Positions 53,462 through 58,394 of a stretch of DNA of 64,000 nucleotides are shown piece after piece (within the stretch, counting starts at the first letter, position 1; each line of letters begins with the position of its first letter). Under the pieces are notes generated by a model, which ran no database searches, had not been told where the DNA came from, and was given only the letters and a program-made list of their open reading frames with translations. Source of the DNA: Phyllosticta citribraziliensis (lineage: Eukaryota). Location: positions 372,001 to 436,000 of the forward strand of contig NW_027117349.1 of the NCBI RefSeq assembly GCF_038025025.1, read 5' to 3'. The position numbers and the translations under genes were made by a program.

Positions 53462-54688
53462 ATGCCGCCCCAAAGCAGAGGTTTCCAGTCCAAGTCGACC
53501 CCTAATTTACCAACCCTCAATTCCCTTTCTTTACCCCTTCCTACCGACAGCGGCCCTGTCATCCCAAAAACCGCTGCAGCTATAAATCCGCCCACCGAGT
53601 ACTCTGCCACCTCACCCTCGGAGCCTGCTTCTGTCGAGGACAATCTCTCGACCGACGACCCCTTCTCACTCGATCCATCCGGCTCTGAAAGCGAAGACGA
53701 CGACCTCGACCTCGAGCCGCTGAGCAAAGATCTCGACTCGAACAATAACGCCGCCCGGCGGCCGCTCTACTCCCACGGCTCGCGATCGCAATCGCATCTA
53801 CCTCAAACCTCCAGCGCGCTATTCCCACCATTCTACAATCGCCCGCCGACGCCTCTGCCGCCCTCACCGTCGCTGACGTCGCTGCTACGCCCCTCGTTCA
53901 GCACCCACACGTCGCGACCCACGACGCCCGACTCGTCGGACGCAGAAGCCGTGCCCGCGGCCAGGCACGCCAACAAACTTCACCATCATGGCACGGCGGC
54001 CAAGCGCGGGACGAGCGCGACATCTGGCGCGTCCAACGGCACGGCGGGCACGGGCACGGGCACAGGAACGGGCACGCCGACCAACGCCCTGACGTCGTCG
54101 TTTGCATCGGCTACGCCGATCCCCCGCGCCTCGCCAAAGGTGCCGACCTACGAGTACTACGGCTTTTTCATTTACTTGGCCTCGTCCTTTGCCTTTCTCA
54201 TGTACTTGCTGTGGGCATATCTGCCGCGGCCTTTTCTACACCAACTCGGTATCTACTACTATCCCAATCGCTGGTGGGCGCTGGCGGTCCCGGCGTGGCT
54301 CGTCATTCTGGTAGTGTACATCTACGTTGCGCTGGCGAGCTACAACCTGGGGTACTTGACACTGCCCATGCGGAGCATCGAAAACTTGGTGGATGATGCG
54401 GCCCAGATTGCTGTGCTGGATCCGCGAGGGAAGATCATCAAAAAGGGAAAAGACACAGAAGTCACAAAGAAACCGTCCGGACACAGGCGGCGCAACACTT
54501 ATGCGGAGAGTTGGGGGTTTTCGGTCGAGGATGCACGCAAGGTGGATTGGAAAAACCTTTGGAACGAGAGCACAGACGCGGTGCTGGACGTGCCAATTGG
54601 CGGCGTCTGCGAAATCTTGTATGGTGACGGGAGGCTGGATCATGGATATCGCGACCAAATAGGCATGGGCATGAACGGCAAAGCATGA
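53462..54688 (+). CDS. GPI19: GPI-GlcNAc transferase subunit PIG-P/Gpi19 with a long low-complexity N-terminus
   Basis: PTYEYYGF.IYLASS..FLMYLLWAYLP..LHQLGIYYYPNRWWALAVP...DVPIGGVCEILY (PIG-P domain). Confidence 0.92.
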   Translation: MPPQSRGFQSKSTPNLPTLNSLSLPLPTDSGPVIPKTAAAINPPTEYSATSPSEPASVEDNLSTDDPFSLDPSGSESEDDDLDLEPLSKDLDSNNNAARRPLYSHGSRSQSHLPQTSSALFPPFYNRPPTPLPPSPSLTSLLRPSFSTHTSRPTTPDSSDAEAVPAARHANKLHHHGTAAKRGTSATSGASNGTAGTGTGTGTGTPTNALTSSFASATPIPRASPKVPTYEYYGFFIYLASSFAFLMYLLWAYLPRPFLHQLGIYYYPNRWWALAVPAWLVILVVYIYVALASYNLGYLTLPMRSIENLVDDAAQIAVLDPRGKIIKKGKDTEVTKKPSGHRRRNTYAESWGFSVEDARKVDWKNLWNESTDAVLDVPIGGVCEILYGDGRLDHGYRDQIGMGMNGKA

Positions 54689-55210
54689 AAGAAATGACAA
54701 CAATTTTGAGCAACCCTTTAGAAAGCTCCATTGTAATGCTCTGTGGTTCTTCGAGACATTTGCCAGGATTCAAAGAGTGACAGCTTTATTTACAAGGGTA
54801 AACCCCAAAAGTCTTCTGGCAAGATGTCACTAGGATATTGGTATTCAAGCCGTGCCTCTCAACAGAACATACACATTCAACTCACGCAGAGTGTTCAAGA
54901 AATGTTTGTATGGCGCGCTCGCCCACTCATTTGCATGAGCAGACAAGCACACCGGTTTTATAATTTTACTATCTTCCCCAAAGACCAGATGTTTCCAGCC
55001 TCATAAGAATACAAAGTGTTTTTTATGATTTTCGTTTCCAAGCTGCGTCCGCGACCTCCGGAGGCTTCCTCAAACGCCGGCCTCCAGGAACTTGTCGCCT
55101 GCCATCACCACCGTTCGATAGTGTCGAGAAGGTGGCGTCGTCGGTATTGTCGTCGTTGTCGATGGCAAGTCGCGGCCTTCATGTTGTTGATTTCCCTTGG
55201 AAGGGGAAAT

Positions 55211-55270
55211 TTACATGACGGTGCAGTACTTGGTGTTGTCGTTCTTCATCGGGTTCCACTTGCGGCCCAT
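55211..55270 (-). CDS. Putative a-factor-like (farnesylated lipopeptide) mating pheromone precursor, 19 aa MGRKWNPMKNDNTKYCTVM
   Basis: The reverse complement of 55211-55270 is ATG GGC CGC AAG TGG AAC CCG ATG AAG AAC GAC AAC ACC AAG TAC TGC ACC GTC ATG TAA. It has a C-terminal CaaX (CTVM), the start context tcaatcaaaATG, G/C-ending codons throughout and an upstream TATA box. Confidence 0.8.
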   Translation of the reverse strand: MGRKWNPMKNDNTKYCTVM

Positions 55271-55375
55271 TTTGATTGATTTGAGTTGGTTGGTTGGGAA
55301 AAAAGAGTGTAGTCGAGTTGGTAGTACCGAAGTATGCTGGTGAGGAAGAAGAGGAGGACGCGTGGGCTGCTGGGG

Positions 55376-55382
55376 ATTTATA
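55376..55382 (-). promoter_or_regulatory. TATA box of the CaaX peptide gene
   Basis: TATAAAT on the minus strand, about 106 bp upstream of the ATG at 55270, followed by a CT-rich then CA-rich leader. Confidence 0.65.
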
Positions 55383-55458
55383 GCTTCGGACTACTGCTGA
55401 GCTGCTGCCTTTGCTGCCATTTTGGGCGGCGTACAAGCAGAGTTGGGTGGGGTGGGCT

Positions 55459-55497
55459 CTATTGAGACTTGTTTACGGATGTCGTTGGGCTATTGAG
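55459..55497 (+). promoter_or_regulatory. Two direct copies of CTATTGAG (candidate mating-type transcription factor sites)
   Basis: CTATTGAGA at 55459 and 55490, 31 bp apart. A third TATTGAG core lies on the opposite strand at 55611-55617. Confidence 0.55.
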
Positions 55498-56708
55498 ATG
55501 ACATTTGGGAAAGGGGGGAGTGCTTTGTTGGTGCGTATGGATCTTTTGTAGTGAACAGGAAGACAATGGCGAGGTGGCACACAGACGGTGCCTTTGTGAG
55601 GAGCAAATGCCTCAATACGTCAATTCCAGTCTAGGTGTTACATTTTTGCTGTATAGACGTTGTCTCCTAGTGTCCAGAATAAGTGGCGACACTGGCGCTT
55701 GCGGCGGCAAGCAGCTGGCTGCGGAAGGCGTTTGGTGGATGCTCCACCTCGTGGGCATCTCCACGTGGACTACTTTTGACCGGGAACAATGCTGGCGGGC
55801 AGGATGGCGTCAACATTTGAGATCTGGTGCTTCGAAATTGAAAGGCAGCAGCACGCGAATGAGTGCCGAGGGCGCTGGTTGTGAGTACACCGAGGATTAC
55901 CTCTTTCCACACCTTTGAAGATGTCAAGAATCCCGTGAATGACTTCAACGAACTCAAATGATGGCCTCGCCCTGGGTGCTGAATAGACTCCATGATGTGT
56001 GTGTGGGTCAATGAACTCATGACAAGGATACACTGCGAAAGAAGCATTGAATGAATATGTGTTATCAGCTGTAGTGGCGCTCATGGCAAACGAGGGTTGG
56101 GAGCGGCGTCATCGACTGTCTTTGAATGAATGCCTTGGCGAGGTCGAGACAAGTCGATGGTCCCGTTATTCCGCCTAGGCACCGTGTCCAAGAATGTCTG
56201 CTCGGATATCTGAATGCTTGCCCAGCGATTTGAGAAGCTTTGCTAGTACCTCCAGACACTTAACCAAGCAGCCACTTGCGGTATTTCGATCGAATGGGTG
56301 CACGATGTTCTTGTTGCCCCAGAATAGGTCTCTCTCCGTGGTAGCTTTTGACATCATAACGATCCAAAGACGTCAAATTCCGATTCGAACAATGCGATCC
56401 TCAAATGCCAGAGGCACTCCAAGCGCGGTCAACTTGTCAATCATGATCCCTTTTTGACACCTCCTTGGCTGCAGTCACGGCAATTCCAGGCACACCAGCG
56501 GGGGTGTTTGTGGGTTGGAAATCTCTTTGGATTCGGCAGCTTTCGAAAAGAAAAAAGGTCCTTTTGAATCCCGAGCCGATTTCCTAGCTCTGTTTGCAAA
56601 ATCCCCACAGAGTCATTTGCTCTTTTACGCACATGCGCCGTCCATATGAACCCTTGATTCGTCCCACATGCTCCCAATCCTCTTTCACACCCGCTTTAAC
56701 TGGTCAAT

Positions 56709-57345
56709 TTAAGCGGACGCCTCCTGGGCCTTCCTGCCCTTGATACCCCTGGGCTTGACGGGCTTGTCAGCCTTGACGGGCTTCTGGCTGTGCTTGATGG
56801 CCGAGGCGCGGGCAATGGCCTCCTTGTTCAGGTCGGCACGGTAGTGGCGCTTGGTGGTGGCGTTGACAATGCTCTTGTAGGTCCTGCAGGTTTACGCATC
56901 AGTCCATGCTCTCCTGGCTTCGTTTGCCCATCGCGCGCTTATGATCCATCCAAAAATTGATCCGCTTTGAAGGCGTGGGGTATACTGACTTGCGGGAGGA
57001 GACGTTGGGGCCGAAGGTCGAGGACTGGATCTGGGAGGCGGGCTTGTTGGACTTGTTGTTCTTCTTGACGAGCAGCTCAACGCCGCCGTTCTTGCCGGCC
57101 TGGACGCCGAAAGCCTTGTCGTTCACGAAACCCTCATACTGGAGACAGGCAAAAACATCAGCTTCACGTCTTCTTCTTCTTCGTCATGGCGTGCAGCGCA
57201 AACGGACCTTCCTCGAGTGGACGTTGGTGAGGTTGAGCGGGTCCTTGGAGAACTGGACACCGCCGGCCTGGGAGCGCTTGACCAGGAAGGCGCTGTGGTT
57301 GCGGGTAACCTCCCAGACGAGGTCGGCAGAGATGTTGGAAGCCAT
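56709..57345 (-). CDS. RPL28: 60S ribosomal protein L28e (eL28); 2 introns
   Basis: MASNISADLVWEVTRNHSAFLVKRSQAGGVQFSKDPLNLTNVHSRK|YEGFVNDKAFGV...KRHYRADLNKEAIARASAI. The symbol follows eL28 (human) naming. Confidence 0.96.
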
Positions 57346-57833
57346 TGTATCGTATGTAGGGGCGTTGGACGGGCAGTCGTGTCTCGGGCGGCGCTCTCAG
57401 TCGTGCAGTGGTGGGCAGGTCGAAATTCGCCGTGTTCGCCAAACCGCACAAAGGCGGATTAGCGCGTCGGCGTTTTGGCTGTCTCTTTTACCGACGTTAG
57501 GCTGGAGCTCAGGTCCCCGGCCGGGAGGTGCTCGGCGCTGACGACAACCGGATCGCCGGGAACACCAGTGGCAGTACCGCCTCTTCGTCTTCGACTTCCT
57601 TTACCTCCTCCTTCACACCTCTCTCTCATGCCACCGGCTTTCGAGCTGCTCTGTTGCCGTGGCCTCATGAGCTGCTTGACTCTCTAGTGCTCGCAGCCAA
57701 AGCGACACCTCCACACCTCTCCAAGGCACCACAGACATCTCCACCTCCGACGCTCTTTATTACCGCTTCCTCCGCAAAGAACAACCTCGTATTCCGTCCG
57801 ACGACCTTCTTCCCTTCGCACGGCCGCTTCACC

Positions 57834-58394
57834 ATGCATTTCTCCACCTACCTCTTCTACTCCATCATTTTTTCCGTCCTGCTTCTTGCTACTGGTACGT
57901 GGATCTCGCGACATCCTTTGCGCACTGCACAGCCTCCAACATTCCCGCGATCCTGTCCACGAACTTTGGACCAACATCACACCACTTGCAAACCTACACG
58001 CTCACCCTCCAGACCTCCGCCTCATCTTTCCACCAACATCCGTAAACCTGCTAACCTGTCCACAGCGCTCTACCTGACCCGCGACCGCTGGAAGCATCTC
58101 CTCCCCAACGCACCCCTTACCCGCTGGTTCTATACGCGCCTCCCCTCCAGTTTCACCGGCGACATCGAGTCCGGCTTCAGCAGCTCGCACTTTGACCTGC
58201 ACGGCAACGTCGCGTCAGGCGATGCGCGGGGCGGGTTGGACGCTGCCGCCAAGGCCGCCATCCAGCGCATCATGAAGAGCCGCAAGGTCGATTTCGACGA
58301 AGGGCGGCGCATCTATATGCAGCAGCGATTTAGGGACAACAATATTGGGCCTGACGGAAGACCGAGGGACCCGAAATTTGTGTCGTTTTCGTAG
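57834..58394 (+). CDS. DUF2015/UPF0357 small membrane-anchored protein; 1 intron (57895-58065)
   Basis: Hydrophobic N-terminus, then SFTGDIESGFSSSHFDL.GN...DARGGLD...VDFDEGR...NNIGPDGRPRDPKFVSFS. Confidence 0.88.
   Translation: MHFSTYLFYSIIFSVLLLATGTWISRHPLRTAQPPTFPRSCPRTLDQHHTTCKPTRSPSRPPPHLSTNIRKPANLSTALYLTRDRWKHLLPNAPLTRWFYTRLPSSFTGDIESGFSSSHFDLHGNVASGDARGGLDAAAKAAIQRIMKSRKVDFDEGRRIYMQQRFRDNNIGPDGRPRDPKFVSFS

Follow-up and report, generated by a model that had tools for sequence, protein, structure and literature searches.

The window analysed here, that is, the whole stretch of 64,000 nucleotides of Phyllosticta citribraziliensis DNA, contains a gap between the PIG-P/GPI19 gene and the ribosomal protein gene RPL28, and in this gap a micro-ORF of 19 codons lies on the minus strand. 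An earlier note on this DNA had proposed that it encodes an a-class, a-factor-like mating pheromone. The features on which the argument rests are the following.

53462..54688, plus strand: PIG-P/GPI19 gene
55017..55377, minus strand: short unspliced transcript, from RNA contigs, with the strand given by adapter orientation
55270..55211, minus strand: ORF of 19 codons, MGRKWNPMKNDNTKYCTVM, plus TAA, from sequence and translation
55376..55382, minus strand: TATAAAT, 106 nt upstream of the ATG, with a TATAAA match at 55377
55459..55466, plus strand: proximal CTATTGAG (TCTCAATAG on the gene's strand), an exact MAT1-1-1 alpha-box consensus (MAT1.1 motif)
55490..55497, plus strand: distal CTATTGAG, 220-227 bp ahead of the ATG and at a distance of 31 bp from its proximal counterpart
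55523..55529, minus strand: AACAAAG, a core of the HMG-box type (CTTTG when the opposite strand is read), lying 26 bp farther upstream than the distal alpha-box motif
57345..56709, minus strand: RPL28, three exons
57637-58394, plus strand: DUF2015 (PF09435) gene, divergent from RPL28, with RNA contigs starting at 57637

The PIG-P protein shares 98% identity with its counterpart in P. citrichinensis, 91% with that of P. citricarpa and 89% with that of P. capitalensis; Botryosphaeriaceae follow with 60-66%. Both genes flanking the gap are those that the earlier note had named, but RNA also covers about 1 kb more of the gap (55673..56700), on the side of the micro-ORF unit that faces RPL28. Contig depth in this stretch is 2401 in one of the RNA data sets (X1), and in another (X2) the RPL28 contig extends to 56060, where the adapter type is that of a minus-strand 3' end. 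Its ORFs of 87-126 aa have no Pfam match and the stretch has no Rfam match; it is either a very long 3' UTR isoform of RPL28 or a non-coding RNA that has escaped annotation. One cDNA end of RPL28, followed by adapter, is found at 56703, 6 nt past the last base of the stop (56709), which would be an unusually short 3' UTR if this is a real poly(A) site. Beyond RPL28, an intron follows position 57894 in the DUF2015 gene, since loose ends of X1 and X2 contigs there continue with letters of the later ORF.

The micro-ORF opens with an ATG at 55270 and, after 19 sense codons, closes with a TAA at 55213..55211. The leader ahead of the ATG reads ...caactcaaatcaatcaaaATGg, a good start context. The predicted product starts with MGRKWNPMKNDN (MGRKWNPMKND...), has a basic, Asn-rich body and a single Cys, and ends in the CTVM box (residues 16-19) immediately before the stop, with Tyr15 adjoining Cys16; the whole peptide holds two Thr and no Ser. 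All 19 sense codons carry G or C as third base, giving a GC3 of 1.00 as against a GC1 of 0.26 and a GC2 of 0.37, while the flanking UTRs and the promoter have a GC content of 49-54%. Among 200 small ORFs of 15-30 aa that lie outside long ORFs, only 2 have such a GC3. When codons that have a synonymous choice and are also used in RPL28 are compared (Cys is absent from RPL28, whose GC3 is 0.91), 13 of the 14 choosable codons of the micro-ORF are the commonest in RPL28, the exception being Pro CCG. This codon usage is the habit of highly expressed, translated genes. The minus-strand ORF of 19 aa, its start context, the third positions restricted to G and C and the CTVM box before the stop are thus present as claimed, on the evidence of sequence, translation and GC3, and TATAAAT is indeed found 106 nt upstream of the ATG (55382..55376).

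How much weight can be given to the CaaX ending depends on chance expectation. The 64-kb window contains 521 first-ATG micro-ORFs of 10-45 aa, one of which passes a strict farnesyl-CaaX filter; random 64-kb sequences (a set of 200 first-order Markov sequences) contain 1.43 strict CaaX micro-ORFs on average, and 73% of them contain at least one. The CaaX ending alone is at chance level, and independent evidence is required for this reason. The narrower ending aromatic-C-x-[V/I/L]-M-stop occurs in none of the 200 random sequences and in none of 555 kb of metagenomic fungal loci, but a rough extrapolation still leaves room for about two such endings by chance in a genome of about 30 Mb. The argument for a pheromone rests on the codon signature, the transcript, the promoter motifs and a similarity in a relative that is limited to the ORF.

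Database searches had little to add. No annotated protein of 30-104 aa among 5.8 billion shares three 5-residue words with the 59-aa stop-to-stop frame around the micro-ORF, an absence that is uninformative because the collection holds nothing below 30 aa. Rfam gave no match up to E = 1 for 54600..56900, and Pfam, searched with six ORFs overlapping or neighbouring the micro-ORF, matched only DUF2015 at 57834..58394 and none of the ORFs that overlap it. Neither Rfam nor, for the ORFs overlapping the micro-ORF, Pfam suggests a different reading.

The earlier note had named a transcript over the ORF as a check of its proposal, and RNA contigs from three studies provide one: X1 and X2 come from the same organism in two studies, and X11 from a metatranscriptome in a third. 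X1 and X2 are RNA, because both skip both RPL28 introns (56883..56988 and 57139..57207, with CT..AC ends). A contig of 392 nt in X2 spans 55017..55377 and has adapter letters at both ends, so that it represents a complete short cDNA span, and the GPI19 contig in the same data set stops at 54828, apart from it. In X1, a single contig begins in GPI19 (53414) and reaches 55280, where adapter sequence takes over; the true cDNA end lies at about 55277, because three of the last four aligned letters could be adapter. The X11 contig, with 7 differences, spans 55020..55285. The cDNA ends on the upstream side are therefore 55377 (X2), about 55277-55280 (X1) and 55285 (X11), and those on the 3' side are 55017 (X2) and 55020 (X11); the latter positions, 194 nt past the stop, are likely the 3' end of the micro-ORF transcript. 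This makes a transcript of about 0.3-0.36 kb, composed of a leader of up to 107 nt without ATG, the ORF and a 3' UTR of about 194 nt. As there is no ATG between 55377 and 55271 on the minus strand, the ATG of the micro-ORF is the first in the RNA. X1 leaves 55338..55671 entirely uncovered, which sets the unit apart from the upstream transcript; the stretch 55378..55672, which lacks RNA cover in X1 and X2, was used only jointly with the adapter-flanked contig ends, as a hole alone proves nothing. The data sets X4-X10 and X12-X19, which hold 0.04-0.15 of the words of 54700..56000, were not counted as evidence.

The contigs themselves are strandless, and the strand was read from adapter orientation on the assumption of stranded libraries and commonly used adapter sequences. 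The adapter types fit a stranded dUTP-type library at all four ends of known genes that served for calibration (56703 and 57359 of RPL28 in X1, 57637 in X1 as the 5' end of the plus-strand DUF2015 gene, and 56060 in X2), and the two informative ends of the micro-ORF unit (55280 in X1 and 55017 in X2) both indicate minus-strand RNA. Contig depth in X2 is 21.5 for the micro-ORF unit, 58 for GPI19 and 1210 for RPL28, contig depths being poor measures. When folded, the transcript 55017..55377 has a z of -2.56 and none of 100 shuffles is as stable; the stability resides mostly in the 3' part, and the leader and ORF are mostly unpaired in the centroid fold. A perfect hairpin of 7 bp with a 7-nt loop (ATTTCCC/GGGAAAT; 55190..55210, minus strand) lies directly 3' of the stop codon.

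Upstream of the transcript, TATAAAT lies about 100 nt from the X1 cDNA end and overlaps the X2 cDNA end at 55377; as the latter end falls inside it, some transcripts may have another core promoter. Further upstream is the pair of MAT1.1 motifs. The exact 8-mer CTATTGAG occurs twice in 64 kb (1.18 expected), and both copies are 189-227 bp upstream of the micro-ORF ATG. In a promoter of 430 bp, the chance of one copy is below 1% and, for independent copies, that of a pair is about 3 in 100,000; the two sites are not fully independent, because the 9-mer TCTCAATAG is common to both. The HMG-box-type core AACAAAG is weak on its own, as there are 9 in the window. Ste12 PRE (TGAAACA) and Mcm1-type motifs are absent from 55271..55700.

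What such motifs do is known from other fungi. CTATTGAG is the in vitro consensus of Penicillium chrysogenum MAT1-1-1, whose ChIP-seq targets include pre1, ppg1, kex1 and kex2, and consensus sites of MAT1-2-1 have three T flanked by C or G (PMC10512297). MAT1-1-1 binds CTATTGAG in the promoters of ppg1/ppgA, pre1/preA and tom1/tomA in P. chrysogenum and A. fumigatus, and clustering of MAT sites is described as typical in this literature. The known carriers of MAT1.1 motifs are genes that MAT1-1 cells activate, such as those for the alpha-pheromone and the a-pheromone receptor, and some MAT1-1-1-activated genes, tomA and AFUB_070880 among them, are of unknown function. The use of CTATTGAG in a Dothideomycete is an extrapolation, because the motif has been validated only in Eurotiales. 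Control through the putative sites may be repression or activation, since each of the two mating-type proteins of P. anserina acts as an activator as well as a repressor (PMC3125171).

A relative offers a further line of evidence. The run X3 comes from a relative that is about 5-10% diverged; its contigs are mostly 90-99% alike to the window, with two diverged versions of many stretches. Its depth reaches 449 in the bin 55171..55337, as against about 210 in the adjoining bins. The matches of its contigs to the window are interrupted at 55211, which is the last base of the stop, at 55274, which precedes the ATG by 4 nt, and at 55188, shortly beyond the hairpin. The 30 loose letters past 55211 and past 55274 show no alignment with the flanks in the window, as judged by eye, and the loose letters before 55188 resemble a diverged, indel-bearing version of the 3' UTR. 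Breakpoints and depth in this one run suggest that the relative has a syntenic copy and one or more additional copies that retain the ORF alone, or else very diverged alleles. Elsewhere in the gap, X3 is represented by two contigs at 55454..55738 (27 and 23 differences, depths 79 and 128) and by two at 55784..56488 (83 and 53 differences, depths 137 and 72); two sets of contigs that differ in their divergence imply two related genomes or haplotypes in the sample.

Conservation of gene order was sought at greater distance, with an alignment of 33 PIG-P proteins that led to 80 metagenome loci, 42-61% identical over the best segment and many with flanks of 6 kb. RPL28 was found near PIG-P in none of the 80 (tblastn with the spliced RPL28 protein), and of five strict-CaaX ORFs within 3 kb downstream of PIG-P in these loci none is like the candidate. 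The more distant fungi that these 80 loci represent have therefore lost or never had the GPI19-RPL28 arrangement of Phyllosticta, and because gene order is not kept at this distance the test says nothing either way about the micro-ORF.

Known pheromone precursors give the candidate its context. The a-factors of Neurospora crassa and Sordaria macrospora have 24 aa and end in NFNGYCVVM, that of Podospora anserina ends in NSYCVVM, that of Gibberella zeae has 21 aa and ends in LSCTVM (...PLSCTVM), and the putative a-factors of Leotiomycetes (the Botrytis cinerea BCIN_13g03330 family) end mostly in CTVM and have 45-64 aa (PMC10569646). The candidate's DNTKYCTVM joins the Tyr-Cys of the N. crassa/S. 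macrospora type to the CTVM of G. zeae and the Leotiomycetes. Its 19 aa compare with about 20-40 aa in yeasts and Sordariomycetes and 45-64 aa in the putative Leotiomycete family, and are fewer than in any a-factor precursor of the comparison set in PMC10569646. Wilson et al. 2023 give a Ser/Thr-rich MPST... start and a Gly-Tyr motif as supporting marks (PMC10569646). The candidate's N-terminus is not Ser/Thr-rich, and as to the second mark, Tyr15 stands directly before Cys16 as in ...GYCVVM, but with Lys for Gly.

Closest to the candidate are mfa-1 (N. crassa), ppg2 (S. macrospora) and MFP (P. anserina), which are likewise tiny, intron-less genes (24 codons, as against 19) with Tyr directly before Cys, C-x-V-M-stop and an Asn three residues before the Tyr. 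They are controlled by mating-type transcription factors (PMC3125171), and the candidate has MAT-type motifs in its promoter. Unlike them, it belongs to another fungal class, lacks the MPST N-terminus, has Lys for Gly/Ser before Tyr and Thr ("CpaX") for Val at a1, and can be aligned with them over the last five or six residues only. With ppg2 of G. zeae (Fusarium graminearum) it shares an identical CTVM box and a similar length, whereas the G. zeae precursor has no aromatic residue before Cys and an MPST-type N-terminus. The Leotiomycete family resembles the candidate in lying outside the Sordariomycetes and in having been found by CaaX and not by homology, both being putative (PMC10569646); its members are Cys-rich near the end and Ser/Thr-rich at the start, unlike the single Cys and the basic, Asn-rich body seen here. 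The h-type precursors, Trichoderma reesei hpp1 and the Huntiella a-factors, are also CaaX-bearing precursors of filamentous ascomycetes, and the Huntiella repeats include CTVM (PMC10569646), but these precursors have several internal CaaX repeats (PMC3068285; PMC10569646) where the candidate has a single terminal box. With MFA1 and MFA2 of Saccharomyces cerevisiae the candidate would share the proposed maturation pathway, and the extra copies in X3 may be a parallel to their occurrence as several genes; it differs from them in having little room for an N-terminal extension at 19 aa and no sequence similarity. Yeast a-factor precursors are longer, with an N-terminal extension that is removed in two steps, and a precursor of 19 residues would have almost no room for such processing. 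The cleavage sites after Asn that the earlier note proposed are pure speculation; cleavage after Asn12 would leave four residues only.

Might the micro-ORF owe its appearance to coincidence, as a chance ORF in a short non-coding or regulatory RNA whose 19 codons have no functional product? Strict CaaX micro-ORFs do arise by chance at 1.43 per 64 kb, the transcript folds better than 100 of 100 shuffles, if mostly in its 3' part, its contig depth is modest, and the 59-aa frame has no protein match, a weak point in a collection without entries below 30 aa. Yet a GC3 of 1.00 together with codons like those of a ribosomal protein is unexpected in a non-coding RNA with flanks of 49-54% GC, the ATG is the first and in good context, the aromatic-C-x-V-M-stop ending is missing from all 200 random sequences, the similarity in X3 breaks at both edges of the ORF, and Rfam has no match; we regard a chance ORF as unlikely. 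That the region is a piece of a neighbour's transcript, either a long GPI19 3' UTR that is read on the opposite strand or transcription continuing from RPL28, and has no mRNA of its own, is very improbable. Such a reading could appeal to the X1 contig that is continuous from GPI19 to 55280, contigs having no direct strand, but the GPI19 contig of X2 ends well before the separate unit with adapters at both ends, X1 is uncovered between 55338 and 55671 and so is not joined to the RPL28 side, and the adapter type at 55280 is that of minus-strand 5' ends in X1 and not of a plus-strand 3' end.

A translated and prenylated micro-peptide under mating-type control could also serve another role, for example as a developmental or signalling peptide activated by MAT1-1-1, like tom1/tomA. 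The MAT1.1 motifs mark MAT1-1-1-activated genes, some of them of unknown function, and the N-terminal two thirds of the product are unlike known a-factors; but the Y-C-x-V-M ending is that of proven Sordariomycete pheromones, and multi-copy conservation of the ORF only, as X3 suggests, is typical of pheromone genes. To our knowledge, moreover, the only fungal gene products below 40 residues that end in CaaX are pheromone precursors. We hold this other role to be as improbable as a chance ORF.

The reading we prefer is that the micro-ORF is an a-class (a-factor-like, lipopeptide) pheromone precursor gene of Phyllosticta (Dothideomycetes, Botryosphaeriales). The proposal of the earlier note has gained support from the micro-ORF's own transcript, its codon usage, the YCTVM ending, the CTATTGAG pair and the X3 breaks at the ORF edges, and we consider it likely, though well short of certain, that the predicted product is such a precursor. 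Several points count against it. While the micro-ORF agrees with the class as functionally defined, beyond the last five residues there is no demonstrable homology to known a-factors, because the micro-ORF lacks the MPST start and the Gly of the Gly-Tyr motif; the Ser/Thr-rich start of the MPST type is a supporting, lineage-bound mark and not a functional requirement. The contig depth of the micro-ORF unit is modest, while pheromone transcripts rank among the most abundant ones in fertilisation-competent P. anserina and N. crassa (PMC3125171). By analogy, too, a gene marked by MAT1.1 motifs would be active in MAT1-1 cells, the opposite of the type that makes the lipopeptide in Sordariomycetes.

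Were the product matured as yeast MFA1/2 and the Sordariomycete mfa-1/ppg2/MFP suggest, Cys16 of the CTVM box would be farnesylated (Ram1/Ram2), TVM would be trimmed (Ste24/Rce1) and the new C-terminal Cys carboxymethylated (Ste14). The resulting peptide of at most 16 residues, ending in ...NTKYC, with or without N-terminal trimming, would be exported by a Ste6-type ABC transporter, and a Ste3-type receptor on the partner's female structure would sense it and so guide fertilisation by spermatia. Mating-type proteins would set transcription of the micro-ORF, with MAT1-1-1 either repressing it in MAT1-1 cells, as in the Sordariomycete scheme, or activating it. If the CTATTGAG sites activate, it would be MAT1-1 cells that produce the lipopeptide, and the assignment known from Sordariomycetes would be reversed. 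For the more specific reading of a Dothideomycete a-class pheromone gene that is minimal, with 19 residues, and wired to MAT1-1-1 through the CTATTGAG pair, we lean only slightly towards acceptance.

Wilson et al. 2023 state that no a-factor gene is known in filamentous ascomycetes outside the Sordariomycetes (PMC10569646). The literature searched, which comprised the text of openly accessible papers, contains no report of an a-factor gene in Dothideomycetes or Phyllosticta, nor the string "YCTVM"; the Phyllosticta mating papers found there have none of the pheromone terms sought, one preprint lacks the word "pheromone", and a term search in PMC3068285 gave no Dothideomycete report. A small gene model at the micro-ORF may already exist in supplements on bioRxiv or in the JGI gene catalogues for Phyllosticta. 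What we describe is probably of a known kind, an a-class pheromone, in a class where this kind had been missing.

The Dothideomycetes are a large plant-associated class with many major crop pathogens, and with a candidate that is transcribed and has mating-type motifs the question can be tested directly. The candidate also provides a search template for other Dothideomycetes: an ORF of about 20 codons, aromatic-C-x-V-M-stop, the GC3 signature and the CTATTGAG pair. If the reading is true, it shows how far the MAT1-1-1 motif of the Eurotiales reaches across classes. Within the genus, homothallism is reported for P. citrichinaensis and heterothallism for P. citricarpa, whose male gametes are spermatia (Guarnaccia et al. 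2019, PMC6859488). The candidate thus bears on mate finding in the citrus black spot fungus, because sex there is heterothallic and proceeds by spermatization.
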